A DNA stretch of 64,000 nucleotides, taken from NCBI GenBank assembly GCA_944320765.1, contig CALUIS010000016.1, forward strand, positions 2,933 through 66,932. The letters are read 5' to 3'. This DNA comes from an uncultured Paraprevotella sp. (lineage in GTDB: Bacteria > Bacteroidota > Bacteroidia > Bacteroidales > Bacteroidaceae). Shown piece by piece: positions 44,625 to 60,274 of this stretch (position 1 is the first letter of the stretch; every line of letters starts with the position of its first letter). Under the pieces are notes generated by a model. It was not told where the DNA came from and did no database searches. It saw only the letters and a program-made list of their open reading frames with translations. A program made the translations under genes and the position numbers.

Positions 44625-44821
44625 CACAGAAAAACTGAAAGGGCTTTGCACGTCGGGCTGCAAATGTTTCCAGATTCCGCAGAGGCTGCCGGAGTACTCC
44701 GCGCCAAGTACTGTCGCGGCCTGTGCGGGACGTTTCCCCTGGAGTGGACGGGCGGAGGGGTAAGCGTCGTTCCGGCATCGGGGAGGGCGTGCCGGGATGA
44801 CGCAAAACCAGTGGGATGCGA

Positions 44822-44957
44822 CTGCCCCGCCTGAAAGGGGGGCTGGCCTGAAAGGCCTGAGGGGTCTGACATCCACGGGAACATACCTTGGTAGTATGTC
44901 TTGTAAATGTTAAACCCCTCAGTCGCTTCGCGCCAGCTCCCCTGCAAGGCGGAGCAG
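44822..44957. repeat. REP-like inverted doublet, copy A (solo; inverted relative to B-D)
   Basis: CTGCCCCGCCTGAAAGGGGGGCTGGCCTGAAAGGCCTGAGGGGT-spacer-ACCCCTCAGTCGCTTCGCGCCAGCTCCCCTGCAAGGCGGAGCAG. Confidence 0.9.
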
Positions 44958-45011: not shown

Positions 45012-48000
45012 TTACTGCACGAACACCTTGCGGGCGGACTTCTGGCCGCTGACATGCACCAGGTAGATGCCCGGCTTCAGGGCGTGGCGGAACGAGCCGC
45101 CCGTGGTGCGTTCGGCATGGACGCGTGTGCCGGACGGGTCGTAGAGTGTCACGGTGTCACCCTCGCGCAACCCCTCCACATAGAGGATGCGCCGGCGCAC
45201 GTAGACGTTCAGCGTGCCGGCCGTGTCGTCCGCGATGGACGAGAAGGAGAGGGTGAAGCGTGCCGCGTCGTCCGCCGCTTCCGTGAGGGTGAAGCGGTAG
45301 TCCGTGCGGCGGAGGTCCACCTTCGCGCCCGTCTTGTGGTCGGTCAGCCATACTTCGGTGGCCGTCTCGATGTCCGCCGTCTCTCCCAGGGTCATCGTGT
45401 ATTCCCCGGCCACGGCGCGGATGCCCACCTGCAAGCTGCCCGCCGCGTCCACGGCGTTCATCAGCGAGAAGCGCGTGCCCGTGCGGTTCACGGCATAGAG
45501 CTGCGGCGCGTCGGCCCGCGGGGCCATCATCTTCAGGCCGTCGGCGCCGAGGGTGAAGTCGCCGTCCGTTTCCTCGTTTGTGGGGGAGAAGACGAAGCCG
45601 TCCGCTCCCGTCTCGCCCCACAGGCCGAGGCGGTACTGCTGCAGGTTCACCCCGTTTCCATCTGTTGTTTCGCCGGGGGCTGAAGGCCGCCGGAAGCGCA
45701 GGGACTCCGTCTGGCCGTCGCCGATGACCGCCGTCTGGGTGAAGACGCCCTTGCCGAAGCTGAGCGTGCCGTCCGTCGTGCCGTCCGGACGGGTGGTGGT
45801 GCCGTCCCAGCTCTGCATGGTGAAGTATTGTCCGTCCTGCAGGGTATAGAGGATGTGCGGCAGGTCCATGGCCGGCGTTGTTCCGGTCAACTTGGCCGTC
45901 AGGTCGTAGCCGCTCACCAGATAAGGCAGGCCGAAGAGGTTCCAGCCCATGTTCTCCTTGAAGGTGAATTTCGGCGTGCCGTCCGCGTTTACCGTGTTCT
46001 CGTCGTATTGCGTCAGGGCGACGGTCTTTTCCGTCTCGTCCGCCGTTTCGCTGTAGACGGGCGCCGTGCCGTTTTCCGCTCCGGCGGTGAAGCGGTAGGT
46101 GCCGTCCGTTCCGGCTTTCAGGGCGAAGCCTTGGTTGGCGTTGAAGGAGGTGGCCGATTCGTTCCAGAATTCCGAGTCGGACTCGTGGAAGGCGAAGAGG
46201 CTTTCCGCGCGTTTGGCCCCGTTGTAGGTCTCCGTGCTGTCGGCCTCGATCAGGGGCGTGAAGGCCGTGGCCTTGCCGGCCGCCTCGTCCACCCGGCTGA
46301 TGCCGTCGCGCCGCAGGGCATAAGGCACGGCTGCCAGGTTCCAGCCCGCGCTGAGCGCGCGCTCCGTGGCCACGTAGGGCAGCGACACGTCATGTCCGTT
46401 GCCGTAGAGCGAGGCACCCTCGCGGAGCAGCAGGTAGCCCGGTGTGAAGGGCGTGGTCGTGGTGACGGTGCCGGAGGTGGTCCGGGTGTCGTGGCCTACC
46501 ACGAAGTGGCCGCCTGTGTTCACGTAGACCACCGACCCGGCCACGGGGTAGTGCTTGCCGGCGGCGATGCCGTCACCCTGGACCGTGCTTTGGTTGGCCG
46601 TGGCCAGTTTCCCGTTCTCCGGCACGCTCCAAGTCTCGAAGCAGCCGTTGTCCGGCTTGCCGTTCAGGAGGCGCGGGTTGCCCGCCAGGTCGCGGTCGTG
46701 CCCGGCCAGTTTCATATAGGCCGTGATGTCGTGGTTGCCGTCAGGGTCGATGTCGGCAGACTCCTCGTCCAGCTGGTAGTTCCAGGCCTCGTCCGTCTGG
46801 TTGTGGATGTAGCGGTTCTTTCCCGTTGCATTTTCGCGGTTGTTCAGGTTTGTTCCGGCGTTGATGGTGCCGGTGGCCGTGACGTTCACGATGGTGCCGG
46901 TGGTGCCGGCCGCTCCGTCCACGAACGAGTTGTAGAGGACACCCTCTTCTTCCATCGTCACGTTTCCTTCCACGATGGAGGTGGAGAGCATACCGCGTTG
47001 GCCTATGGTGGCCTGGCCGTCCACCAGGAAGCCGTCCACCACGGAGGTGTTTTTGTTATCTCCTTGCTCGGCTTTGATGGCCAGTCCGCTCACGGTGGAG
47101 TGCTGCCCCTGGCTTTCCATCATGCCGCGCCGTTGTGCCAGCAGTCCGGCCACGGTGTCGGTGGCGGCGGTGTCGGTGGCGGCGGTTTCGCTGCCGTTGT
47201 AGCGTTCGGTGTGCATGCCGCCGTACACTTTCGTGCCGCCCAGCTGCACGTTGAGGCTCGCGACCCGCCCGTCTTGTCCCACGGTGCTTTGGGCGAAGAC
47301 GTAGCCGTATTCGTTCGGGCGGGTGTTGGCGTAGATGCCCGCCAGGTTCACGGCGTCCTGCAGGTCCGTCAGGGCGTTTTCCCACGAAGAGCCGTCGCCC
47401 GCCGTGGTGAGCCGGTCGTCCACGTAGATGATTTGCCGCATCGGCGCGGCGTATTCGTAGGCCCCCACGTCGATGCTTTGGTCCACGAAGCGGGCCGTGC
47501 CGCCCAGGTCGGTTTCGGCCGCCTTGGCCGCGTCGCTTACGGCATCATCCGGGTCTTGTCCGTCCTGGATGAATCCCGGATAGCGGTAGTCTTCCATGAA
47601 ACTTTCATACGGCGTGTCGTCGCCCTGGTCCAGCAGGGCGATGCCCGGGCGGATGTGGTAGTCGCGCGACAGCACGTCGTCGGCGGTCGGATTCACGAAG
47701 TTCGGGCCGTTCACGATGTCGTCGTTGTCCGTTCCGGGAGCGAAGGCCACGTTATGGTTCGTTTCGTTGTCCGTGAGGGTGGAGAGGTGTTGGTTCTTCG
47801 TGTTCTTCCACGCCACGGAGTTCTGCACCGTCGGGCTGCCCGTGAAGTCCGTGCCGTTCTGCGCGAACGTGCCGTTGATGACGGTGGCTGTGGCGTTCTG
47901 TTCCACTGCCAGTCCCGTGCCGCTGTTGTCCGCGAAGAGCACGTTCACCAGCGTATGTCCGCCTTGGCTGCCGCTTTCCACGACGGCACCCTTCCCGGAG

Positions 48001-51000
48001 TCGCGCACCTGCACGTTTTTCAGCGTGACTTTGTTATTCGTCTGGCTGGTGTGGATGCGTATGCCGTCCCCTTTCGTGCCGTCTTCCTTCGCGTTATGGA
48101 AGAGGATGCCTTCCACGAACACTTCCCGTCCGGCTTGCGGGACGTTGATGTCCAGCAGGGTCTCCGTCTCCGCGTCCGGATGGGCGTAGATGACGGTGGG
48201 GTTCGAGAAATCCTGCACCCCTTGTTCGTTGTACGAGCCTCGGATGGAGAGGGTTTGGGCGGAGGACATGGTCGTAGACCCCATGGTGGCGTTGAAGGCC
48301 GTGTTGCCGGCAAAGGTATGCGCGTTGGCATACTCGCCTTGGCGGATCAGTACGGCATTGTAGGGCCAGTTCTTTTTCTCGGTCGTGTTTTGGTCGTCGC
48401 TGGCATTGGCCAGCCCCACGATGGCCCCGCGCAGGTCGCTGGTGGCGTTGGCCCAGTTGAGGCCGTTGGCTTCTCCTGCATCCATCGTCGCCACGTAGAT
48501 GGTGTCCATCTTGTCGAAGGCCAGGTTGTACTGGTACTCGTACAGCCCGATGTCGATGATGCGGTCCATGTCTTGGTTGTCCTCATCTTTCGGCCCGCTG
48601 TAGCGCAGGTAGAGGGAGCCGTCCTCTTTCTCCATGAAAGCGTTGAGGATGGGGCTGTTCGGGTCGTAGGTATCGGTCAGCCTTTCTTTATAAGCACCTT
48701 CAGCCGCCCCGTAATAGTCCGGCACTTCGGCTTCCGAGGTGGGGAAGGCCACGTCCTTGTCCACCACGCCGTCCCCGGCATCCGTCAGGATGGAGATGGA
48801 GCCTGGATTCCAGCGTTCGGCGGAGGAGAAGCCCGCCACGCCGGCCGTGGCGGAGGGGGCGGCGAAGCGCGGGCCGTCCACCGCTCCGTTGTCGGCGGAG
48901 ACGGTGATGTTGTGGTTGCCGGTCGCGTCGGTCTTTCCGTCCGGTTTCTGGCTTTCCGTCCAGTGGTTCTCTTCCGTGGCCGAATAGCGTACGGAGGTGG
49001 TCAGGTTGCGGTGGAAGGATTCCGGGTTGGCCCCGTCGGTATATTCGTTGCCCCAGGCCAAGGTGTTGAGGATGTCCCCATGACGGGCCGTCACGGCATA
49101 TTCGGCCGACTTGTTGCGCACGAGGGTGTTGTTCACCAGCAGGATGCCCGTCTTTTCGTCATCGGAGGACGGGAACACCGCCGCCGCGCCGCCGTCGCCC
49201 GTGGTCTCGTTGTTGGCCCAGAGCGTGTTGAAGGCCTTGAGGCCGTAGTCGCCGCCGTAGACCATCGCGGCACCTCCGCCCAAATAGTTGTTTTCTTCCG
49301 TCTTAGGATCGTCCACCGTGCTGTTGCCCGCCAGCATCGAGCCGAAGAGGCGGAGTCCGGCGTCGTGCACATAGATGGCGTTGCCTATCACGGCGCGGTT
49401 GCGCAGCAGGCGGCAGCGGTTGAGCGTGTATTTCACGCCGCTGGAATAGATGCCGCCGCCGCGTCCCACCACACCGGTGCCTTCCTGCGCGTTTTCGCTT
49501 TCAGCGTAGGCCGTGTTGGCGGTCTGTCCGTCCATGATGGTCAGGCCGTCCAGCGTCACCTCGGCAGCCATATTTTGTGGGATGTCATAGCTTTGGTCGT
49601 TCTGTCCTTTGTTCTCCGTGTCGCTATAGATGACGTGGTAGGCATTCGTCTCTGTGGTGGACACGTTGATGTTGCCCGAGAGGATGCTCTGGTAGCTCAT
49701 CTCCCACGGTTCCAGGATGCCGTTCGAGTTCAGGTCGCTCTGCTCGCGGGCGGCGAGGATGTTTTCGGTGGTGGCATTGGTCTGCCAGTTTACATTGGAG
49801 ACACCCGGTATGGACGTGAGATTTTCATTGTTTTCGTTGCAGATGTAGCCCTCTTTTCCCGAGAATCCGCCGTAGATCTGCACGCCGTAGGGGACGTTGA
49901 AGGAGTTGAGCCGCTGGTCGTTGACGAGGCCCGGCGCGGTATTGTTGTCGCGCTTGTAGGTGGGCTTGTACGTGCCTTCGGCAATCAGGATCTCGAACGT
50001 CTTCTCCCGGGCTTTTTCGTATGTTTTCCTTACTTCGCGGACGTATTGCAGGGCCTCGTCCAGGTGGGAGAACGGGGTGTAGAACGAGCGGCCCAGATAG
50101 TCTTCCACGTTGATGTCGTCTGGAATGCGGTCATCGCGTCCCGTAGCCGCCACGAAGAGTCGGGTGAACCACTTGTTCGTGCTGAGCCGTCCGCCCTCGA
50201 AGGCGAAGGCTCCCACGTCGAGACGATCCATGCCGGTCTGTTCGCGTTCCAGCCGGTTGATGTCGGCGGAGGCGACACCCATGCCCGTCACGAGGCGGGT
50301 CTGGTAGCCCACGGGCATACCCGATTTGATGAGCGGGGAGAAAGCCCGCAGCATGTAGTTCACCTCGTCGGCAAAGTAGTCGTTGGGTTCGCGGGTCATG
50401 CTGGTGTTCTGCTCAAAGGTGGCGGGCAGTTCCGTCTGTTCCACGAAGCAGCTGTTGAAGAGGTAGATTTCCGTGGGGGCGTCGTCGGCTTGCCCGGTCA
50501 GGGTGTGGCCGATGTAGTCGTCGGTGAACCGTGTTTCGGTGACGCCGCTGATGTTCATGTCCGAGCTGGCCTCGTTGCCCCAGATGACGGAGTTGAGGGT
50601 GACGGCCGCGCCGTCCTCCAGGTAGAGGCCGCCACCCGTGTCGTCGGACGTGTTGCCGGCGATGGTGGACGAGATGATGTAGGTGCCGGCGGTGGCGGTG
50701 GGGGCTTCCGCGCCGGTATGCCCGTTGGCGGCGTAGATGCCCGCGCCGTAGGTGGCCTGGTTGTCCTTGACGAGTGTGCCGGAGACGGTCGCGCCCGCCT
50801 CCAGGTAGAGGCCGCCGCCGCTGGTGGCGGTGTTGTCCCGCACGATGCAGTTGCGCACGTGGCCCCATGCCGGCACCACGGCCCCGCCGCCCTTGTCGTT
50901 GTCACGGCCGGAGGAGGTGGCCTGCCCTTCCGTGAGGGTCACGCCGTCGAGGATGGTGGTCAGGCCCTGCGTGTCGCCCTCCGGTTTCTCCCCGAAGGTC

Positions 51001-54000
51001 ACGGCGTGGTGCCCGTTCACCGTCTGTCCGTCGCTGAGCGTCACCACGGGGCTGAGCAGGGTGGGGTAGTTGCGGATGTCGCGGCAGTCGGGGTTGGAGG
51101 TCTCCTGCCAGTTGTCCTCCGTCTCTTTGTAGCCGCCCATGAGGGTCACGCCGTAAGGCACGGTGTAGGTGTAGCTTTGCGGGTCGTTGGGGTCGCTCAG
51201 GTCGTCCTCGTTGGGATGGTAGACGAACGGGTTTTCTTTCTGGTTGTAGCCCGCCACCTTCACGATGGCGCGGTGGCCTGTCCCCCCGGCCACGTACTGT
51301 CCCGCCGCGTCGAGGATGTCCTGCAGCTTTTCGGCGCAGGCGGCCTGGTCGAGGCTGCCGCCGCTCCGCGTGCCGCGTCCCGCTTGGGTGACGTAGTAGG
51401 TGGCGGTGGTGATGCCGTTCTCCGTAGTCGTATTATGTTGGATATTGGCCGTATTGTCCAGCTCGTAGGCTCCCACGTCCACGGTGCAGTCCTTGATGCG
51501 GTCGGTGAAGTCCACGTCGGTTTCGGGCAGTGCGCTGCCTTCGTAGCCGTGGTTGACGCACCAGTTCCCCACTTTCAGGCGGTAGTTATTGTTGGTTTGG
51601 GCGTTGGCATCGGCAAAAGGATATTCCAAATAAGATCCGTTTTGGCTGTCCACCAGTTTGTTCCGGATGCCTTCGCTAAGTTGGGTTGCTGTATGTATGT
51701 AACAGTTGTAAGAAAGTTGGAAGGTACCTTCGCTGGTGGACTTGATGGCGAGGCCCGTGTTTCCGTAAAACAGGCAGTTGTAGATTTCCAAGTTGGACTT
51801 GATGCCGGTTGTTGTCCATTGGGTCAGTCCGCCGCCGTTGCCGTAGTTGGTTGTGCGGTTGTAGGCAATGGTGTTGTTGTAGAACTTGGCGTTCTCAATG
51901 AAAATGCCTCCGCCATCGACCTGGGACGAATTATTGGCCACCAACAAGTTGTAGCCTTTTCCTGCAAGCATGTACATGCCGCCGCCATAGGATTCATTGC
52001 CGTTGCAGGCGTTGTTGATGACGAAGCAGTTGATGACCTCACTGTAGTGGTCAAGATGGGTAGAGCTGTCGCCGTCGCAATAGATGCCGCCTCCGCGGTT
52101 TCGACTGGCACTGCCGTTGTAGTTTTGGGTCACTACGCAGTTGCGCAATTTCACGCCGCGGAACATGCGGACACCGGCCCCTCCGTCGCGGTTGGCAATA
52201 TAGTTCTTGTAAAAACCGTGTCGGATGGTGAACCCGTCCCAAGACGCTCCTTCATATTCTACATATCGGGGATCGTAGTTTTGGTTCTTTTCGTAACGTG
52301 TGGTGTTGGTGGTGGCATCATTATCATTTAAGTTGAAGTTGGGGTCACTTCCGGCTGTGCTTCCGGGAGCTTTTGTGGGGAGGCAGACATCCGGCTGGAA
52401 CAAGACGGGTTTGCGTAGCACGCCGTCCGATGTCGCGACATTATCGAAACGGCTTGAAATGTACGGGGTATTGCCGTCCCACCGGTCAAACATGGATTGC
52501 TCTTGTATTTGCAGGATGGTTTCATATTTAGCCCTGTCCGCTTCGGTGGCACCTTCGCGCAAAGGGATGTACTGCGACATTAGGGCTTTGCGCTCGTCCA
52601 TACCCGGACACCCTTCGTTGGGGAAACCACCATAGACATCCACGCGGTCGCGGATGACGTAACCTTTGTAGTCCGTGTAGATGCCTGCGGCCACCCATAC
52701 TTGCCTAATTTGTCCAGAAGGATCTGCTGCGGAGGCCTTCTCCACGGCATATTGCAGGCCGCTGATGTATCGTTCTTTTCGGTTATTGGTAATAGTGGGA
52801 TATTTGTTTGCCTTAATGAAGTCCTTGCTGGCACCGGACTGTTCGGCATAGGGGCGATTTATCTCATCGTAAAAGCCGATATACCGTGAGTTTGTAGTGA
52901 GAATCTTGTTTCCTCCTTCTGTGATGTATTGGTTATTGTCCAAATCGTAGATATAATTCCCCGCGATGGCGTTCTCCCAAGAAGAGCCGTCCATTTTGCC
53001 TGCGCCTTCGGGCGTGACGTACCACACTGTTCCTGTTTCCGGCAGTTCCGCCTCGTAGGCACCGAGGTCGGTCATGCCGCCGAGGTTGCGGGAGAGGCCG
53101 GCGATGTCTTGGGGGATAGGCATACTGGATGTCTGATTGATGACTTGGTTGGCAGCCTCCACTGAGCTGGTGAGCGGCTTGAAGGAAGAGTAACCGCCGC
53201 GGTAGGTGTCGAAGCCGAGGGTTGCGCCCTTGCCGTTCGTCGGGTTCTGGAAGTGCTCGGCAGTGACGTCGAGCGGTACGTTGTTGGAGCTGGCCAGCGT
53301 GTTGCCCATGGAGAGGCAGTTGGTGGCGGAGGCGTCTCCGCTATGCTGCGCATAGCTTCCTCCCGCATTGTTGGCGAAGGTGACATGGCGCAGGGTCAGG
53401 GCTCCGGCGATGACCGAAGCGGCGTTGGCATCGGCGTTCGTGTTGTTGTTCACTACGCAGTTGTCCATGTTTACAGTGGAGCCGGTTCCGCCGTAGATGG
53501 CCGCGCCCTGGTTCGCGCTGCAGTTCTCGATGATGCACCGCCGGAGCGTCACTGTGGCGTTTTCTTCGATGAGGAGGCCGCCGCCCTGCAGGTAGACGGC
53601 CTCGCCCGCCGCGTTGCCGTTGATGATGTGGAAGCCCTCGAAGGTGACTTTCGCGCCGGGCTGCACGTGGATGCAGTGGTAGAGGCCGTCGGCCCGGTCG
53701 CGTCCGTCCGGGTTGCCGTTGATGACGGAGCGGTAGGTGAGCGGGTCGTGGTCGTGGCTGTCGTTGTCCGCGAAACCGCCCTTGACGGTCAGGGGCAGCC
53801 CGCTCTGTATGGCCGGCACCCCGATGGTGGCCGACTTCGGGTCGTCGCTGGCGAAGGTGTAGCGCGGATAGATGGTCTCGCTCTGCAACACGTAGATTTC
53901 CAACTGGTTGACGCCTTGGGCTTCCATTTCGGCCTTCGTCAGGTCCGCCATATAGCTGATGGCCTCGTTGACGGAGCGGTAGCCCCTCTCCCAGCTGCTG

Positions 54001-56888
54001 CCGTCGTGTTCCGGTTCCTGGCAGGACACGTCCACATAGAGGCGGAGGGTGCTGCCATTCTTTTCAGGGACCAATTGCACCGGGTCGATGCGGTGTGCGC
54101 CGAGGGCCGGCTTGCTGTGCAGCGGGTCGCCCTTGAGGTCCACCTGCGGGATGAGGCTCACGCCGGAGGGCATGGCGAGGGGCGGCAAGCCCTGGGCGCG
54201 GAGGTTGCTGCCCTGCACGGCTTGCCAGAGGTAGTCGATGTCGGTCCAGTTTTCCTGGATGCCGTATTCCGTTCTCAGCGATGCCGCGTCGGCGAAGTTG
54301 GTGCTTCCGCCCGCCGGGTCGGAAAAGTCCGGCGCGAGCAGGGTGGTGTTCCCGGCTTCCGGCACGTTGTTGTCGTCGCTCAGGCGCAGCACGTCCTCCT
54401 GCAGGATGTTGTACCACACCGCGCTGTTGTAGCCCGACACGGCGGAGTTGTAGAACCGCACTTTGTCTGTGGCCGGGTTGAGGGCGTAGAAGGGCGCGTT
54501 GTCCGACGCGCCGTTATGGTTGTTCCACAGCACGGAGTTCACCACCAGCCCGTATTCGTAGAGGTAGAGGCCGCCCGTCTTGGAGGCGTCGCTCATGGCC
54601 GCGTCCGTGGCGCGGGGGGTGTAGTTGTTCACGATGGTGCTTTGCACCACGGTGCCGCCCCGGTAGCAGTACACCGCCCCGTTCTCCAGGCTCTGGTTGT
54701 TGCTCACCACGCTGGTGGAGAGGGTCAGCTGGCCGGGGTATCCGCCCGCGGGACAGTTCATGAACAACGCCCCGCCGTTGTGGGCCGAGTTGTTGGCCAT
54801 CATGCAGCGCAACACCTCGCCCCGCGTGTCGGCGTACACCGCCCCGCCATGGCCGGTAACGGCGCTGTTGTTGTAGATGAGGCAGCCTTCCACGCGCCCG
54901 CCTTTCAGGTAGATGCCGCCGCCATGGTTCTGTGCGCGGTTCTCCTTCACCACGCAGTTGACCAGCGCGGTGCGTTCGCCTTGCATGTACACGCCGCCGC
55001 CCAGTCCGTCCGTGCCGCTGTTTCCTGAGGCATAGCCGCCCCGGATGGTGACGCCGCACAGCTCGGTGCGCAACCCGAACTCACCCTCGCCTTCGCCAAG
55101 AGGGGCGAACCACACCACGTGGCAGGATTCGCTGGTGGGGGTCCAGCTGTTGTTGCTCGCGCTCCACGTGCAGTCGCCGTTGTAGTTGTAGCCTTCGAGG
55201 ATGGTCTCGCCGCCGTTGGCGTAGGCCCACGGGCGGTCTCCCCTTGTCAGCTTGTCGCGGGTCATGTCTGCCGGTTCCTCCGGGAATCCGCCGTAGACGC
55301 TGATGCCGTCGCGCATCCGGAAGAAGACGGTGGCCGTGTTGCCTGCCACGAGCTGTCGTGTGGGCCGGTAGGTGCCGGCGGCCACCCACACCTCTCCCCG
55401 TCCGCCCATGTCGGCCAGGTCGTCAATGGCTTGCTGCAGGTCTCCCATGGCCTGGCTCCAGCTGGTGCCGTTGCCCGTTCCTCCCGCCTTGACGTAGCGG
55501 ATGTGTCCGGCCTCCACCTGGCGGTACTCATACGCGCCGATGTCGGGGAGCGTGCCGGAGGGGCGTGCGGTGCCGATGGGGTCCAGGGCCAGCACGCCTC
55601 GGACGGCGGCGGGGAGGTCCGCGATGGCGGCTCCCCGGTCAATCAGCACCGAACCGTGGCGCAGCTGGTAGCTTTGGTCGGGGTAGGGGCTTTCCTGCCA
55701 GTTGAAGTCCTGGTCGAAGCCCATCTTGGGCGAGGGGTCGTCGAAGAGGGGCGGCTGGTCGTCCAGGTCGAAGTTGTTCGCTCCGGCATAGATGTTGCCG
55801 TAGCCGTCCGCCGCGCCTTTGTCGGCTTCGGGATAGGCGCAGTGCGACATGCCGGGCTTGTTCGCCTCGGTCTCGTAGAGGGCGGAGTTGCCCCAGATGA
55901 CTGTGTTGTACACTTGTATGCTGCCATCGGCGGGGTCGGTCAGCTCCACGGCAGCCGCCGTGTTGCGCGTCACGGTGCTCTGCACCACGCGGGCCTCGGG
56001 CGACATGAGGATGCCGCCGTTCTCGTTGTTGGCCACGACGGTGTTCACCACCATGCCGCGCCCGGCCAGGTAGATGCCGCCGCCGTCGTTCTGTTGCGAG
56101 GAGCGCGTGCCCGCCGCGTTGTTCATCAGGTAACATGACTCGATGGTGGAGGCGTCCGATCCGGCACCGTCATGCACGTAGATGGCGCCGCCCGTGGGAG
56201 CGTAGTTGTAGAGGAAGAAGCAGTGGCGGATGTGGTAGGTGCCGCTGCCGCTCACCACTACCGCGCCGCCAGGGCCGTAGCGGTTGGCATCGGTGTTGTG
56301 GGCCGCCGCGATGGTGAGTCCGTCAATCATCGTGGCTTCCGTGCCGTCGGTGGCGAGGGTGAACACGTGCGGGGCGTTGTCAGCCCGCAGGTCGTCCGGG
56401 TCGTCGGTGGGGAAGATGAGCGACGGGCCTGCCGGGAAGTACTTGTCGTCCTTGTCCCGGTCGGCCACGACGACGGAGATGTAGCGGAACTCGAAGCGGT
56501 CGCCCCGCCGTGCGCGGTTGTCCGGCGTCTCGGTGGTTTCCGTGCCGCTCTCGCCCGAGAAGCCGCCGTAGATTTTCACGCCGGCGGGGACGGCGAAGCC
56601 CTCTTCGGACGGTACGACATAGACTTTCTCGCGACTGTCCACCTTCTCATAGCCCATGAGGCGGATTTCGTCGCCGGCCTCCGCCTGCCGCAGGGCCTCA
56701 TAGAGCGTGGTGGCGTCCTGCCAGGAAGAGCCGTTTCCCTTGCTGGCCTCGTTCAGCGGTTTGACGTAATAGATGTTTTGTGCCATGGCCGTCATGGCGC
56801 AGCATAAAAAGAGGCAAGCCGCGAGGAAAGCGGCCTTGCGTGTCGTTCCCGTTGCTGAATTCATCTTATATAAGTCCTTCATCTTCAT
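45012..56888 (-). CDS. Giant (3958 aa) secreted surface protein: eight tandem right-handed beta-helix (Pmp/pectin-lyase-like) modules with choice-of-anchor-Q-like ends and a T9SS-like CTD
   Basis: Signal peptide (AMA-Q). Eight repeats start YV...G.G.SW..A...L..A and end D.GAYE-like, with many GGG(I/L/V)Y motifs. C-terminal VTLYDPSG...LKPGIYLV...KVFVQ. Confidence 0.85.
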   Translation of the reverse strand: MKMKDLYKMNSATGTTRKAAFLAACLFLCCAMTAMAQNIYYVKPLNEASKGNGSSWQDATTLYEALRQAEAGDEIRLMGYEKVDSREKVYVVPSEEGFAVPAGVKIYGGFSGESGTETTETPDNRARRGDRFEFRYISVVVADRDKDDKYFPAGPSLIFPTDDPDDLRADNAPHVFTLATDGTEATMIDGLTIAAAHNTDANRYGPGGAVVVSGSGTYHIRHCFFLYNYAPTGGAIYVHDGAGSDASTIESCYLMNNAAGTRSSQQNDGGGIYLAGRGMVVNTVVANNENGGILMSPEARVVQSTVTRNTAAAVELTDPADGSIQVYNTVIWGNSALYETEANKPGMSHCAYPEADKGAADGYGNIYAGANNFDLDDQPPLFDDPSPKMGFDQDFNWQESPYPDQSYQLRHGSVLIDRGAAIADLPAAVRGVLALDPIGTARPSGTLPDIGAYEYRQVEAGHIRYVKAGGTGNGTSWSQAMGDLQQAIDDLADMGGRGEVWVAAGTYRPTRQLVAGNTATVFFRMRDGISVYGGFPEEPADMTRDKLTRGDRPWAYANGGETILEGYNYNGDCTWSASNNSWTPTSESCHVVWFAPLGEGEGEFGLRTELCGVTIRGGYASGNSGTDGLGGGVYMQGERTALVNCVVKENRAQNHGGGIYLKGGRVEGCLIYNNSAVTGHGGAVYADTRGEVLRCMMANNSAHNGGALFMNCPAGGYPGQLTLSTSVVSNNQSLENGAVYCYRGGTVVQSTIVNNYTPRATDAAMSDASKTGGLYLYEYGLVVNSVLWNNHNGASDNAPFYALNPATDKVRFYNSAVSGYNSAVWYNILQEDVLRLSDDNNVPEAGNTTLLAPDFSDPAGGSTNFADAASLRTEYGIQENWTDIDYLWQAVQGSNLRAQGLPPLAMPSGVSLIPQVDLKGDPLHSKPALGAHRIDPVQLVPEKNGSTLRLYVDVSCQEPEHDGSSWERGYRSVNEAISYMADLTKAEMEAQGVNQLEIYVLQSETIYPRYTFASDDPKSATIGVPAIQSGLPLTVKGGFADNDSHDHDPLTYRSVINGNPDGRDRADGLYHCIHVQPGAKVTFEGFHIINGNAAGEAVYLQGGGLLIEENATVTLRRCIIENCSANQGAAIYGGTGSTVNMDNCVVNNNTNADANAASVIAGALTLRHVTFANNAGGSYAQHSGDASATNCLSMGNTLASSNNVPLDVTAEHFQNPTNGKGATLGFDTYRGGYSSFKPLTSSVEAANQVINQTSSMPIPQDIAGLSRNLGGMTDLGAYEAELPETGTVWYVTPEGAGKMDGSSWENAIAGNYIYDLDNNQYITEGGNKILTTNSRYIGFYDEINRPYAEQSGASKDFIKANKYPTITNNRKERYISGLQYAVEKASAADPSGQIRQVWVAAGIYTDYKGYVIRDRVDVYGGFPNEGCPGMDERKALMSQYIPLREGATEADRAKYETILQIQEQSMFDRWDGNTPYISSRFDNVATSDGVLRKPVLFQPDVCLPTKAPGSTAGSDPNFNLNDNDATTNTTRYEKNQNYDPRYVEYEGASWDGFTIRHGFYKNYIANRDGGAGVRMFRGVKLRNCVVTQNYNGSASRNRGGGIYCDGDSSTHLDHYSEVINCFVINNACNGNESYGGGMYMLAGKGYNLLVANNSSQVDGGGIFIENAKFYNNTIAYNRTTNYGNGGGLTQWTTTGIKSNLEIYNCLFYGNTGLAIKSTSEGTFQLSYNCYIHTATQLSEGIRNKLVDSQNGSYLEYPFADANAQTNNNYRLKVGNWCVNHGYEGSALPETDVDFTDRIKDCTVDVGAYELDNTANIQHNTTTENGITTATYYVTQAGRGTRSGGSLDQAACAEKLQDILDAAGQYVAGGTGHRAIVKVAGYNQKENPFVYHPNEDDLSDPNDPQSYTYTVPYGVTLMGGYKETEDNWQETSNPDCRDIRNYPTLLSPVVTLSDGQTVNGHHAVTFGEKPEGDTQGLTTILDGVTLTEGQATSSGRDNDKGGGAVVPAWGHVRNCIVRDNTATSGGGLYLEAGATVSGTLVKDNQATYGAGIYAANGHTGAEAPTATAGTYIISSTIAGNTSDDTGGGLYLEDGAAVTLNSVIWGNEASSDMNISGVTETRFTDDYIGHTLTGQADDAPTEIYLFNSCFVEQTELPATFEQNTSMTREPNDYFADEVNYMLRAFSPLIKSGMPVGYQTRLVTGMGVASADINRLEREQTGMDRLDVGAFAFEGGRLSTNKWFTRLFVAATGRDDRIPDDINVEDYLGRSFYTPFSHLDEALQYVREVRKTYEKAREKTFEILIAEGTYKPTYKRDNNTAPGLVNDQRLNSFNVPYGVQIYGGFSGKEGYICNENNENLTSIPGVSNVNWQTNATTENILAAREQSDLNSNGILEPWEMSYQSILSGNINVSTTETNAYHVIYSDTENKGQNDQSYDIPQNMAAEVTLDGLTIMDGQTANTAYAESENAQEGTGVVGRGGGIYSSGVKYTLNRCRLLRNRAVIGNAIYVHDAGLRLFGSMLAGNSTVDDPKTEENNYLGGGAAMVYGGDYGLKAFNTLWANNETTGDGGAAAVFPSSDDEKTGILLVNNTLVRNKSAEYAVTARHGDILNTLAWGNEYTDGANPESFHRNLTTSVRYSATEENHWTESQKPDGKTDATGNHNITVSADNGAVDGPRFAAPSATAGVAGFSSAERWNPGSISILTDAGDGVVDKDVAFPTSEAEVPDYYGAAEGAYKERLTDTYDPNSPILNAFMEKEDGSLYLRYSGPKDEDNQDMDRIIDIGLYEYQYNLAFDKMDTIYVATMDAGEANGLNWANATSDLRGAIVGLANASDDQNTTEKKNWPYNAVLIRQGEYANAHTFAGNTAFNATMGSTTMSSAQTLSIRGSYNEQGVQDFSNPTVIYAHPDAETETLLDINVPQAGREVFVEGILFHNAKEDGTKGDGIRIHTSQTNNKVTLKNVQVRDSGKGAVVESGSQGGHTLVNVLFADNSGTGLAVEQNATATVINGTFAQNGTDFTGSPTVQNSVAWKNTKNQHLSTLTDNETNHNVAFAPGTDNDDIVNGPNFVNPTADDVLSRDYHIRPGIALLDQGDDTPYESFMEDYRYPGFIQDGQDPDDAVSDAAKAAETDLGGTARFVDQSIDVGAYEYAAPMRQIIYVDDRLTTAGDGSSWENALTDLQDAVNLAGIYANTRPNEYGYVFAQSTVGQDGRVASLNVQLGGTKVYGGMHTERYNGSETAATDTAATDTVAGLLAQRRGMMESQGQHSTVSGLAIKAEQGDNKNTSVVDGFLVDGQATIGQRGMLSTSIVEGNVTMEEEGVLYNSFVDGAAGTTGTIVNVTATGTINAGTNLNNRENATGKNRYIHNQTDEAWNYQLDEESADIDPDGNHDITAYMKLAGHDRDLAGNPRLLNGKPDNGCFETWSVPENGKLATANQSTVQGDGIAAGKHYPVAGSVVYVNTGGHFVVGHDTRTTSGTVTTTTPFTPGYLLLREGASLYGNGHDVSLPYVATERALSAGWNLAAVPYALRRDGISRVDEAAGKATAFTPLIEADSTETYNGAKRAESLFAFHESDSEFWNESATSFNANQGFALKAGTDGTYRFTAGAENGTAPVYSETADETEKTVALTQYDENTVNADGTPKFTFKENMGWNLFGLPYLVSGYDLTAKLTGTTPAMDLPHILYTLQDGQYFTMQSWDGTTTRPDGTTDGTLSFGKGVFTQTAVIGDGQTESLRFRRPSAPGETTDGNGVNLQQYRLGLWGETGADGFVFSPTNEETDGDFTLGADGLKMMAPRADAPQLYAVNRTGTRFSLMNAVDAAGSLQVGIRAVAGEYTMTLGETADIETATEVWLTDHKTGAKVDLRRTDYRFTLTEAADDAARFTLSFSSIADDTAGTLNVYVRRRILYVEGLREGDTVTLYDPSGTRVHAERTTGGSFRHALKPGIYLVHVSGQKSARKVFVQ

Positions 56889-56936: not shown

Positions 56937-56972
56937 GCTCCCCTGCGAAGCGGGGCAGTTTTTGGCCGCGGG
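56937..56972. repeat. Truncated extra copy of the REP right arm plus flank
   Basis: GCTCCCCTGCGAAGCGGGGCAGTTTTTGGCCGCGGG resembles 57132-57167 GCCCCCCTGCGAGGCGGGGCAGTTTTTGGTTGCGGG. Confidence 0.8.
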
Positions 56973-56987
56973 CTTCCGTTCGGCGAT

Positions 56988-57153
56988 TGCTCCGCCTTGT
57001 AGGGGAGCTGGCCCGTAGGGCCTGAGGGGTTTAACGCGCACGTCAGCAAACTTTTAAAGTCAGCTTTCGTGTTTGTTCCCCTCGTGGGCGTTTTCCTCGT
57101 GGGCGTGAGACCCCCCAGCCGCTTCGCGGCAGCCCCCCTGCGAGGCGGGGCAG
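56988..57153. repeat. REP-like inverted doublet, copy B (left direct repeat of the DUF559 unit)
   Basis: 166 bp; 5 mismatches versus copy C by manual alignment. Confidence 0.95.
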
Positions 57154-57590
57154 TTTTTGGTTGCGGGTTCTTTCTTCTCCTCGAACTCCGTTTGTGACAG
57201 TTCCGCCCGACGTTGCGATACGGCTGTCTGGATTTGTCGGACTACGACAGACATGTTGCGGAACACATCTTCGTTTTCGTAGCGGAGAATCCGGATGCCA
57301 TGTTCGCGATAAAGGTAGTCACTCCTTTGTCGGTCGTGTTCCAGTCCGTCGGGGGAATAGTGGCCGTCTCCGTCCAGTTCTATGCCCAGCCGCAGCTCGT
57401 GGCAGTAGAAGTCCAGGATGTATGGCCCCACGCCATATTGTCTTCTCCATCGGCTACCGTTCATTTGTTTGCCGCGCAGCAATTTCCAGAGTGTCGCTTC
57501 GGCCGGGGTCAGGTTGTGCCGCAGCTCTTTCCGGCGGGCTTTGCCGTCGTATGGATTGTCTGTCTGGTATTTGCTTCGGTCGTATGTCAT
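57060..57590 (-). CDS. DUF559 endonuclease-domain protein (Vsr-like fold)
   Basis: RKELRHNLTPAEATLWKLLR, WRRQYGVGPYILDFYC, LGIELDGDGH, HDRQRSDYL and GIRILRYEN. The last ~31 codons lie within repeat B. Confidence 0.9.
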   Translation of the reverse strand: MTYDRSKYQTDNPYDGKARRKELRHNLTPAEATLWKLLRGKQMNGSRWRRQYGVGPYILDFYCHELRLGIELDGDGHYSPDGLEHDRQRSDYLYREHGIRILRYENEDVFRNMSVVVRQIQTAVSQRRAELSQTEFEEKKEPATKNCPASQGGCREAAGGSHAHEENAHEGNKHES

Positions 57591-57616
57591 CTTACGTTTT
57601 GTTTTGTTTTTATAAC

Positions 57617-57782
57617 TGCTCCGCCTTGTAGGGGAGCTGGCCCGTAGGGCCTGAGGGGTTTGACATTCACGTCAGCAAACTTTTAAAGTCAGCTTTCGTG
57701 TTTGTTCCCCTCGTGGGCGTTTTCCTCGTGGGTGTGAGACCCCCCAGCCGCTTCGCGGCAGCCCCCCTGCGAGGCGGGGCAG
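57617..57782. repeat. REP-like inverted doublet, copy C (right direct repeat of the DUF559 unit)
   Basis: Near-identical to copy B; ends 26 nt before the DUF559 ATG. Confidence 0.95.
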
Positions 57783-57805
57783 TCTTTTTGTCCCTGTGGG
57801 TGGTT

Positions 57806-58900
57806 TCAGTTCCCGCTGCCCGTCGGCAGGCCGGTGAGAGTGACGCGCAGGCGGTAGTAGGCCACGTCGTCCGGATTGTACTGGTCCGGCGTGTATGTAC
57901 GGTCAATGGAGTACGTTCGTGTCTTGTCCGCTGTTTGCTCCATAATTTGGATTTGGTAGTTTATCGTTCCGCCGCCAGGCTGGAAGATGTAGGTGTCCTC
58001 GCGGCCATAGACGGCGGTGCCGGCATTCGCGTCCCCGTCATCGTTGAACAGGAGCGTTTGTTCGTTTCCTGTACTATTCTGTGTCGGCTTGAACACATAT
58101 CCTTCTTGGGGCAGGCCGCTGAGTATGATGGCATTCAGGAACGCGTTGGGGTGCGCCTCGTGGAAGGTTTCAGAGAAGTTCCACTGGATGTCCACCTTGG
58201 CCGCCACATGGTGAAGCGTACCGGTCACCTCGCTTTGCTTCTGTCCGTAGTTTTTAACGGGGATGGCTCCGTTCACCACACCTTCGGCTGCATTGTAAGA
58301 GGAATAGAGGTCGCGAAGCGAGATGGAATGGTTGTCGAATGACAGGGTGATGGCCTCTATCGCGGCCTTGCTCTTTTTCTTAGTTGTTCCGTCTTCCGAA
58401 AGCTCGTCCGGTTGGGGCAGGCCACCGTACACATCTTCCGCGCCCAAGTCGTCCGCACTGGCGATGATGTAGCAGTATGCGTCCGTCGCGCCGTCGATGA
58501 GCGGCAGGTTGATTTGGTCGGTGTAGGAGTACACATATACGTTCTGTCCCGTGCCGTCCGTGGTCCAGCTGTCCCGGATGCCGGAGTACTCGCTGAACAG
58601 CACTTCCTTGGTGTCGCCGTCGGCATCCGTGAAGGCCGTGTAGACGTACAGGTAGTCCGGCAGCGGCAGGCGCGCGTCGCTGCCCGGGTCGCCCGGCGAG
58701 CGTTTGAGGGCTTCCGAGGCCGGGATGCTGATTTGCAGCGGCACGTAGCGGTCCTCGTAGGCCGGCGCGGGCACTTCGTCGTCGTGTTGGCAGGCGGTGA
58801 GCGCCGTCAGGAGGGCGAGCAGGGCCAGTAGTCCTGCCGCGCCTTCCGTCAGTCGCTTCTTATATAAATAGTTTAGTGATGTGTGATGCATGATGTCCAT
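57806..58900 (-). CDS. Lipoprotein, probable type V pilus accessory subunit
   Basis: Lipobox LTAC-QHDDE, then LQISIP...KRSPGDPG (basic cleavage-type site) and LHHVAAKVDI. Lies in an operon with pilin-like genes. Confidence 0.6.
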   Translation of the reverse strand: MDIMHHTSLNYLYKKRLTEGAAGLLALLALLTALTACQHDDEVPAPAYEDRYVPLQISIPASEALKRSPGDPGSDARLPLPDYLYVYTAFTDADGDTKEVLFSEYSGIRDSWTTDGTGQNVYVYSYTDQINLPLIDGATDAYCYIIASADDLGAEDVYGGLPQPDELSEDGTTKKKSKAAIEAITLSFDNHSISLRDLYSSYNAAEGVVNGAIPVKNYGQKQSEVTGTLHHVAAKVDIQWNFSETFHEAHPNAFLNAIILSGLPQEGYVFKPTQNSTGNEQTLLFNDDGDANAGTAVYGREDTYIFQPGGGTINYQIQIMEQTADKTRTYSIDRTYTPDQYNPDDVAYYRLRVTLTGLPTGSGN

Positions 58901-58912
58901 TCTCCTTGTCGT

Positions 58913-60052
58913 TTAGATTTCCACTTCGTGGTTGCCGCCGGGCTTCCAGTCCAGTTCCACGCTCACGCCCACCGACTGGTCCGAGGTGACCACCTGGCCG
59001 TTGTCGTTGAGGCGCGCCTTGATGACCTTCAGGCGGCCGGCGGGCAGGGGTGTCTTCACGTGGAGGGTGCTGCGGGTGGTGCTGCCGTCCGCCAGGGTGG
59101 CGTACACCTCCATGCGCCAGAGGCCCTCGCCGCTGGTGGACACGTCGCCGTTGCCGCGCGTCTCCGGCCCGTCGGCCGAGGGGAAGCACACGGCATGGAA
59201 GGCGATGAGTCCCGCCTCGTCGGTGCGCAGCGTGCGCACCACGGGCGAGCGGTCGTAGCCCGTGAAGGTGCTGTCGGAGGGGGTGTAGCCCGTGGCCATG
59301 TCGCGCACGTAGGCCGTGAGGGCTGCGGGCTGCGCCCCGGCGGTGGGCTGTAGCACGAGGATGGCGGCACTGTTCTGCATGCCCAGCGAGAGGCTGAACT
59401 GCTGGCTCTGCCCTGCCGAGACTTCCATTTCCGCCGTGGTGGAGAAGATGCCCGTGGTCTGGCTGTCCACCGTGTCGGCTTCGGCCTGCTGCACGCGCAG
59501 GGTGGCGAAGCGGTCGGCGGCGGCATATTGCAGGCTGCCCATGTCGGCGGTGTTGGCCAGCGCGGCGTGCTCGTAGGCCCGTGGTTCCACGTAGAGGGTG
59601 AACGAGGCTTGCCCGGCGTTCACCGTGTAGCGGTCGTGCCGGTAGAGCGACTTGTCGTCGCGGTCGAAGAACGAGAGGTCGATGTCTCGTGCCTGGTTGG
59701 TGAACACGCCTGCGAGCCGTTCTTCCAGCCGTGCGGCCAGCTGTTGTTCGGCGGCCGTGGTCAGTTCCGTCTGCAGTTCCGTGCGCAGGTCGAGGGACAG
59801 GCGCAGGTCGTAGCGCAGGGCCACGTCCGCGCCGCACTTCGAGAGGTCCTCGTTGATGCAGCCTGTGAGGGCGAGCGCGGCGGCCGCAGCCAGTCCGGCC
59901 CGTCGCAGGGGGCGTGGCACCTTCCACCGCCTCGTGCTGTCGGCGCGTGGCGGGAGCTGCTCTGTGCGGGAGTGCCTTGTTCCGATGTCAGCTCTCTTGA
60001 TGTTCATTTCCTGTATTTCTTTTTGTCCTTTGGTGGGCGGCGGGCCGGCCAA
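58913..60052 (-). CDS. FimB/Mfa2-like fimbrial lipoprotein; probable start 60007
   Basis: LALTGCINEDLSKC lipobox typical of Mfa2-like proteins, IDLSFFD, and a C-terminal VSVELDWKPGGNHEVEI strand. Confidence 0.7.
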   Translation of the reverse strand: MAGPPPTKGQKEIQEMNIKRADIGTRHSRTEQLPPRADSTRRWKVPRPLRRAGLAAAAALALTGCINEDLSKCGADVALRYDLRLSLDLRTELQTELTTAAEQQLAARLEERLAGVFTNQARDIDLSFFDRDDKSLYRHDRYTVNAGQASFTLYVEPRAYEHAALANTADMGSLQYAAADRFATLRVQQAEADTVDSQTTGIFSTTAEMEVSAGQSQQFSLSLGMQNSAAILVLQPTAGAQPAALTAYVRDMATGYTPSDSTFTGYDRSPVVRTLRTDEAGLIAFHAVCFPSADGPETRGNGDVSTSGEGLWRMEVYATLADGSTTRSTLHVKTPLPAGRLKVIKARLNDNGQVVTSDQSVGVSVELDWKPGGNHEVEI

Positions 60053-60101: not shown

Positions 60102-60274
60102 AAAACTGCTCCGCCTCGTAGGGGAGCTGGCCCGTAGGGCCTGAGGGGTTTGACGCGAACGTCAGCATTCTTTTGAAGTCCGCTTCTGTGGGTGTTTCCC
60201 CTCGTGGTGGTTACCGTGGGTGTGAGACCCCTCAGTCGCTTCGCGACAGCTCCCCTGCAAGGCGGAGCAGTTTT
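60102..60274. repeat. REP-like inverted doublet, copy D (solo)
   Basis: Outer arms AAAACTGCTCCGCCT / AGGCGGAGCAGTTTT are perfectly inverted. The left arm is nearly identical to B/C; the spacer is diverged but homologous. Confidence 0.92.

Follow-up and report, generated by a model that had tools for sequence, protein, structure and literature searches.

Introduction

REP/REPIN-RAYT systems are reportedly made up of repeat doublets together with a single-copy Y1 HUH transposase gene that is flanked by them. Integron gene cassettes are composed of an ORF and a folded attC site and move as circles. As for DUF559, it is a very common nuclease family whose structure has been solved, and we know of no role for it. 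In the classification of PMC3424549 (Table 1), 'VSR, DUF559, DUF2726' form one clade (1cw0, 3hrl and 3r3p). Knowledge of BoxC/PIT/TMECO repeats in E. coli goes back to the 1990s; they are found throughout bacteria and mark sites of genome instability, with no function or partner protein known for them (PMC4666352). The consensus of this 'intrastrand triplex' is CCCTCNCCC N3-6 GGGNGAGGG N3 GGGNGAGGG (Holder et al. 2015, PMC4666352), and no mobility genes were found near TMECO by the same authors.

The locus compared with these systems here lies in the window, that is, the whole stretch of 64,000 nucleotides that was analysed (contig C16:2933-66932), which belongs to a source genome (G000) of 2.93 Mb in 48 contigs, with 56% G+C and 99.98% completeness. 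It is regarded as one local case of a widespread cassette, in which a DUF559 gene is lodged between copies of a structured BoxC/PIT-type repeat. No published description of the pairing of DUF559 with BoxC/PIT-type repeats was found in the paper library searched; the nearest is a table row of PMC9881135, which gives 'DUF559 domain-containing protein' an odds ratio of 14.3 for enrichment among predicted inversion targets.

The DUF559 Cassette and Its Gene

A 917-bp spacer separates a fimbrial-type lipoprotein gene (57806-58900, minus strand) from the gene of a giant surface protein of 3958 aa (45012-56888, minus strand), and it is this spacer that holds the cassette. The DUF559 gene, identified by its PF04480 profile match and encoding a Vsr-fold PD-(D/E)XK protein of 176 aa, occupies 57060-57590 on the minus strand. 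Upstream of it lies doublet C (57617-57787), with repeat units at 57614-57663 (+) and 57735-57783 (-), and downstream lies doublet B (56988-57158), with units at 56986-57034 (+) and 57106-57155 (-), the spacers between the units being 71-72 nt in both. B and C form a direct repeat of 171 nt with an offset of 629 and six mismatches (96.5% identity), four of which are clustered at 57033-57038. The initial annotation came close to these values with 166-bp repeats, five mismatches and the same offset. It had also stated that only the gene and a 26-nt A-rich leader separate the two copies, which is indeed the case: the unique DNA (57159-57616, 458 nt) consists of that leader, which fills the interval from doublet C to the ATG (57591-57616, minus strand), and 432 nt of the ORF. 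As it further described, the ORF then reads into doublet B for 99 nt, which gives 32 codons and the stop; that is to say, residues 1-144 come from unique sequence and residues 145-176 are encoded by the repeat.

The two solo doublets of that annotation, A and D, are likewise real. Doublet A (44821-44957) has an ordinary short spacer and lies just 3' of the giant gene, while doublet D (60104-60272) has a long spacer of 69 nt, lies within the fimbrial operon and is 84% identical to B and C. As a single strand, copy B folds with -46.3 kcal/mol (z = -5.0), and none of 200 shuffled sequences folds as well. A truncated unit of repeat family D2, comprising the first hairpin only and followed by a T-run on the plus strand, is found at 56937-56972 (minus strand). 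It was also considered as a duplicated end of the DUF559 gene and rejected as such, the shared 9 nt being part of an extended repeat consensus (AACCsGCrAGAAG), which is present at other copies. An Rfam scan of the region returned MIR1858 matches at chance level only (27 bits against a gathering score of 137), and PADLOC returned weak domain-level matches only, so that the cassette does not count among the known defence systems.

The protein, a putative nuclease, matches PF04480 over residues 17-124 with E = 6.8e-27 and 93.9 bits (cut-off 20.6), and a match to PDB 3hrl, a solved structure named 'endonuclease-like protein', was obtained with E = 6e-13. In an alignment of 24 homologues all 24 invariant columns are kept, including R49 R50 Q51, D60 F61 Y62, E71 L72 D73 G74 and H77, which bears out the earlier remark that the conserved motifs look intact; the presumed catalytic residues D60, E71, D73, H77 and E105 are retained in the same alignment together with the RRQ motif. 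With the E. coli YcjD equivalog model NF007294 the score is 61 bits, below the cut-off of 218, and the protein is, as judged from these scores, a relative and not an equivalog. G000 contains exactly one DUF559 gene. Compared with the syntenic, 75%-identical orthologue of a sister species, dN/dS is 0.16 at dS ~1.06. What is shown is an intact single-copy gene on which purifying selection acts and which has been kept at this locus since the split of the two species.

Structure and Genomic Distribution of the Repeat Units

The unit can be written as CTCCGCC-TGAAA-GGGGAG-[GGCCC GTA GGGCC]-GAGGGG. In it, a pyrimidine block is followed by its purine complement and then by another purine block, the mirror of the second block, so all three blocks of the triplex-type design are present, and the second loop of the unit (~17 nt) holds a 5-bp hairpin with a GNA loop. 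This second hairpin occurs with five Watson-Crick arm types and is paired in 62 of the 68 in-register copies. Its loop has the form C-GNA-G in 44/68 copies, which we take to be the very stable DNA mini-hairpin of the GCGAAGC type. Positions 5, 24 and 39 covary three ways, being G-C-T in 54 copies and C-G-G in 10; this would fit a base triple, and linkage within subfamilies could equally give it. When a scanner of our own for the three-block design was applied, it scored 59 of the 89 units of the genome, with a genome background of ~130-140 hits. The TMECO consensus with its short loops does not cover the unit, which reads CTCCGCC-N5-GGGGAG-N17(hairpin)-GAGGGG; the design is common to both and the consensus is not. 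On its block structure, the repeat unit is a BoxC/PIT-type three-block motif and not an ordinary REP. Of the inverted REP doublets proposed in the initial annotation, the convergent inverted pairs of 50-nt units stand and the identity as ordinary REPs does not.

By iterated nhmmer search, 89 units of 50 nt were collected from G000, with the consensus AACTGCTCCGCCTGAAAGGGGAGCTGGCCCGAAGGGCCTGAGGGGTCTCA; the unit pattern gives 68 matches in the genome and the reversed pattern gives none. Among the 89 units there are 34 convergent doublets, the only close arrangement that was seen. The spacer within the doublet measures 36-42 nt in 26/34 cases, and B, C and D represent a long-spacer subtype of about 69-72 nt. 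At least 59 of the 89 units lie within the 9% of the sequence outside long ORFs, so that the family is scattered, mostly intergenic and arranged in inverted doublets, as REP/REPIN families are. A Y1 HUH/RAYT transposase was sought in G000, and neither a PF01797 match nor a homologue of the RAYT-like ORF of the congener G017 was found.

No two other doublets of the genome are as similar as B and C, which are 95% alike and are each the best match of the other. In the sister species (L048) the flanking doublets are 92-96% alike, whereas doublets of the two species are only ~72% alike to each other. Thus, the flanking doublets evolve in concert, which means that sequence continues to be exchanged between the two flanking copies while the intervening 458-bp gene is retained.

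Some changes in the repeat complement were also seen nearby. One strain (L034 99-334) has an extra 50-nt unit adjoining doublet D, a small within-species repeat polymorphism. In the sister species, a doublet lies between two fimbrial genes (L048 1314-1469) where G000, going by the alignment coordinates, apparently has ~22 bp, so doublets seem to be gained or lost on such a timescale.

Distribution in Related Genomes and Strains

In a search of 5.8 billion proteins, the two nearest homologues proved to have doublets of the same superfamily on either side. P0002 (75% identical, L048) lies at the syntenic locus of the sister species, and in P0003 (56% identical, L049) the ORF likewise reads into the downstream doublet. 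Among 31 congeneric species genomes the unit is carried by three, namely G000 (68 pattern matches), G017 (74) and G030 (136). In G017 and G030, a DUF559 gene was found neither by protein search nor with PF04480 nor with the family profile, subject to the caveat of dropout from draft assemblies, because a 458-nt gene between repeats can vanish from them; many DUF559 homologues are located on contigs shorter than 1.5 kb. Among the 5.8 billion proteins there was also no further homologue above 57% identity that could belong to G030. The scattered repeat family thus does not need the DUF559 gene, with draft-assembly dropout as the caveat.

A metagenome contig that is 99% identical to G017 (L049) has the DUF559 gene of the 56% homologue, and the G017 reference is without it, which makes the gene sporadic within the G017 species. 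The flanks of this pair have diverged, so that the insertion site cannot be read from it. At the place corresponding to the doublet-DUF559-doublet of L049, the G017 sequence (L058 ~905-960, G017:C15) contains only a 29-nt palindrome, AACAGCCCCGCCTCGCAGGCGAGGCTGTT, which resembles the two outermost doublet ends joined and may represent either a footprint or a normal terminator. DNA searches of the congeners for a syntenic empty site gave none, the flanking genes not being conserved in G017 or G030.

Orthologues of the DUF559 clade of the window were found only in the repeat-bearing lineage and in 0/27 repeat-free congeners. Another congener, G008, has a different DUF559 (38% identity) with short BoxC-like motifs of its own, of which five are present in G008 and none in four other congeners tested. 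G017 also contains a RAYT-like Y1 transposase ORF of 180 aa (L017 1396-1938, G017:C1), whose flanks, when translated, point to a different repeat of lower GC content; the 50-nt unit was not found at that locus.

Within the species of the window, the three-doublet layout is identical in 10/10 independent metagenome contigs examined in detail, and every further contig of sufficient length has the DUF559 gene at this locus. Contigs from 33 blocks of the assembly collection encode the identical DUF559 protein there. Neither a solo nor an empty allele of the cassette site was seen among ~20 strain contigs, and the solo/full polymorphism suggested at the outset was accordingly not encountered. Scans of a separate collection of metagenome contigs, in which the species is not represented, gave 0 hits for the solo allele and likewise 0 for the full one.

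The giant surface-protein gene (45012-56888) and the fimbrial-type lipoprotein genes (57806-60052) form a strain-hypervariable mosaic. Its nucleotide diversity reaches 0.2-0.3 (200-nt bins, nine metagenome strains) and alternates with segments of ~0-0.5%. The cassette is nearly without diversity; a recent sweep was considered and no evidence for it was seen, since the same holds for a neighbouring conserved gene and the high diversity belongs to the surface-protein mosaics.

Pairing of DUF559 Genes and Repeats across Bacteria

To see the locus in a wider frame, the three-block scanner was applied to 80 DUF559 loci from species-representative genomes of 13 named phyla. The wider association hinted at in the initial annotation was confirmed: motif density is 4.18 per kb within 300 bp of DUF559 genes versus 0.143 per kb more than 600 bp away, a ~29-fold difference. 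Any motif nearby was recorded for 71/80 DUF559 genes against 21/181 other genes of the same loci, and motifs on both sides for 41/80 against 2/181. Bracketing direct repeats of at least 60 nt were found at 24/78 DUF559 genes and 3/191 controls, and bracketing inverted repeats of at least 30 nt at 20/78 and 0/191, respectively. It is nearly certain that the association of DUF559 with the repeats is real and specific.

The direct-orientation layout of module, gene and module seen in the window recurs, with modules of 100-240 nt, and the design with a hairpin in loop 2 was found in Acidobacteriota, Planctomycetota, Hymenobacter, Pedobacter and Bacteroidaceae. With respect to orientation, motifs pointing towards the gene from both sides occur in 36/80 loci, which would fit insertion into a doublet spacer, and nearest units facing away from the gene, as in the window, are the rarest orientation (1/80 loci). 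When the repeat class is placed on the DUF559 tree, 14 changes are needed versus a shuffled mean of 30.7 (minimum 25); the phylum follows the tree weakly, with 16 changes versus 21.8 shuffled. Because related rows share labels, this fit is suggestive and not proof of co-transfer.

Carriage of a relative by plasmids (29/72,556, mostly non-mobilizable) and by phages (2/50,697) is rare, so the classical vehicles do not explain the spread. In nine of the 80 loci (L080, L088, L089, L092, L093, L114, L123, L133 and L143), the DUF559 domain is part of an open frame exceeding 1000 aa, perhaps through fusion or in-frame insertion.

In E. coli K-12, a perfect TMECO is located 168 bp downstream of ycjD on the same strand, in agreement with the statement in the initial annotation that this gene sits beside BoxC-type palindromes. 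In the fabI-ycjD-sapF region of K-12 (L144 5040-5840), part of the 3' end of ycjD (GGAGACGGTGCTGGAGAATATTC) is present a second time, in the interval from the stop of the gene to the TMECO. Contiguity is broken ~40 nt before this TMECO in ~2080/5426 complete E. coli genomes, and strain 536 has an RND efflux island at that place.

Possible Origin of the Cassette

The explanation that we favour, and hold only tentatively as somewhat short of probable, is that the DUF559 gene is a selfish, homing-type lodger, for which a pre-existing repeat family would serve as landing and recognition site, and that it is not the engine spreading this family; the mechanism is inferred. The nuclease would recognise the folded single-strand repeat with its hairpin 1, its GNA mini-hairpin and its G-rich third block, and would nick at or near it. 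The resulting breaks would lead to recombinational repair between repeat copies, which may homogenise both flanking doublets and may also place 'gene + one doublet', by copying or re-insertion, at another doublet. The route could be a 629-bp circle or gene conversion, either of which would yield the doublet-gene-doublet layout, and the scattered family would have been spread by something other than DUF559.

This homing-type reading agrees with the association statistics over the 80 loci and the tracking of the DUF559 tree by repeat class, with the similar bracketing of the 75% and 56% homologues, and with the motifs that G008 and E. coli ycjD have of their own. The kept invariant residues, the dN/dS of 0.16 and the concerted evolution of the flanking doublets point the same way, as do the structure of the unit (pairing of hairpin 2, C-GNA-G loops, covariation of 5/24/39) and the sporadic distribution seen in L049 with the gene and the G017 reference without it. 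Moreover, one member of the Vsr/DUF559 clade is a proven homing endonuclease of a group I intron (PMC3424549, Table 1). On the other hand, there is one gene copy with 34 doublets on offer, where active homing would be expected to give several; no empty or solo allele was seen at the cassette site, and the single presence/absence pair (L049 and G017) has diverged flanks that leave the insertion site unreadable. Classical homing splits its target site and does not duplicate a whole 171-nt module, and the gene of the window stands between two complete doublets, not inside one, instead of interrupting its own recognition site. The nearest units also face away from the gene, as in 1/80 loci only; RecA-mediated conversion between close direct repeats could homogenise them without a nuclease, and the covariation among repeat copies may reflect subfamily descent and not structural constraint.

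Some of the same evidence can be read without any interaction between protein and repeat, if fragile, recombination-prone repeats simply receive foreign DNA and DUF559 is a small gene that is often transferred. This is possible and yet rather doubtful. Strain variation is concentrated at TMECO sites (PMC4666352), ~2080/5426 E. coli genomes show a break of contiguity at the TMECO next to ycjD, repeats thrive without DUF559, and the window locus is itself a hypervariable surface-protein mosaic; but such passive neighbourhood leaves unexplained why 89% of DUF559 genes and 12% of other genes are flanked across 13 named phyla, why repeat class tracks the gene tree, and why two species have kept the gene between 171-nt direct repeats at dS ~1 under purifying selection. 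A further view, in which DUF559 would be a domesticated single-copy enzyme that copies, spreads and sustains the whole 89-unit family as RAYT does for REPINs, appears quite unlikely. It would account for a genome with one DUF559, no Y1 transposase and family members on both sides of the gene, for clade orthologues confined to the repeat-carrying lineage (0/27 repeat-free congeners) and for BoxC-like motifs found only in the genome with the DUF559 type of G008. However, the largest and very homogeneous family, that of G030 (136 matches), and that of G017 (74) are without DUF559, again with the dropout caveat; no further hit above 57% identity among the 5.8 billion proteins is attributable to G030, and B and C belong to the atypical long-spacer subtype and not to the majority form of the family. 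The RAYT/REPIN-like partnership advanced in the initial annotation is accordingly retained as far as a gene lodged in a genome-wide REPIN-like family without RAYT is concerned, and is not supported as regards a nuclease that mobilises or maintains the family, since G017 (74) and G030 (136) lack DUF559.

Very little probability is given to the folded repeats being terminators, insulators or translational brakes that house a potentially toxic nuclease, with scattered copies doing likewise for other genes. The 59/89 units in the 9% of sequence outside long ORFs, the terminator-like look of truncated units followed by T-runs, and the position of one doublet directly after the stop of the upstream gene and of another across the DUF559 stop would suit such a regulatory role. 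Nevertheless, PMC4666352 quotes earlier experiments in which PIT/BoxC elements acted neither as promoters nor as terminators, and a role in regulation alone would not lead one to expect long direct repeats on either side of the gene, concerted evolution or co-transfer across phyla. Finally, repeats break short assemblies and Logan contigs end at doublet C, so that an assembly error or a trivial recent tandem duplication had to be considered for the bracket; this is refuted by the identical layout in ~20 independent assemblies from two sample series, the sister species has the same layout as well, and the chance of an artefact is negligible.

Whether or not the gene is a homing-type lodger, the window sets constraints on any account: a thriving repeat family does not require the gene, selection keeps the gene between direct repeats that recombine, and the flanking copies evolve in concert. 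The pairing is specific and very frequent, which makes both the repeat problem and the DUF559 problem experimentally testable.

Comparison with Known Systems

Compared with REP/REPIN-RAYT, the window has short structured repeats that are mostly outside long ORFs and form inverted doublets, and one enzyme gene per genome framed by family members. Unlike RAYT, its enzyme is a Vsr-fold PD-(D/E)XK protein and not HUH, with no PF01797 match, and its repeat is a three-block, triplex-type motif. Nor is the family found only together with the enzyme gene, given G017 (74) and G030 (136) without DUF559, under the draft-dropout caveat. If the link is real, this would be a repeat-plus-nuclease element parallel to REP/RAYT with a different enzyme.

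With the BoxC/PIT/TMECO repeats (PMC4666352) the window units share the three-block design, the intergenic and scattered location and the occurrence at sites of strain variation. They differ in their blocks (CTCCGCC / GGGGAG / GAGGGG), in a loop 2 of ~17 nt with a 5-bp GNA-loop hairpin instead of 3 nt, and in their arrangement in convergent doublets of 140-170 nt. The likeness to Vsr and the Vsr-fold homing endonucleases (PMC3424549) lies in fold and clade, one clade member being a proven selfish homing nuclease and Vsr being an enzyme that nicks; the difference is that the gene of the window is not in an intron.

As in an integron cassette, the DUF559 ORF has on both sides of it direct copies of an imperfect palindrome with an ssDNA fold, and 'ORF + one site' could circularise. 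Unlike in integrons, the nuclease cannot carry out strand exchange, and the site family is scattered over the genome and not arrayed. A broader and unlikely proposal is that DUF559 nucleases are the missing protein partners of BoxC/PIT/triplex-type repeats throughout bacteria, which would recognise the folded single strand, nick it and thereby mobilise 'gene + repeat' units, small circles being one possible form, and would also copy or homogenise gene-less repeats. If this were true, they would make up a nuclease-driven class of mobile elements, distinct from those based on transposases or integrases.
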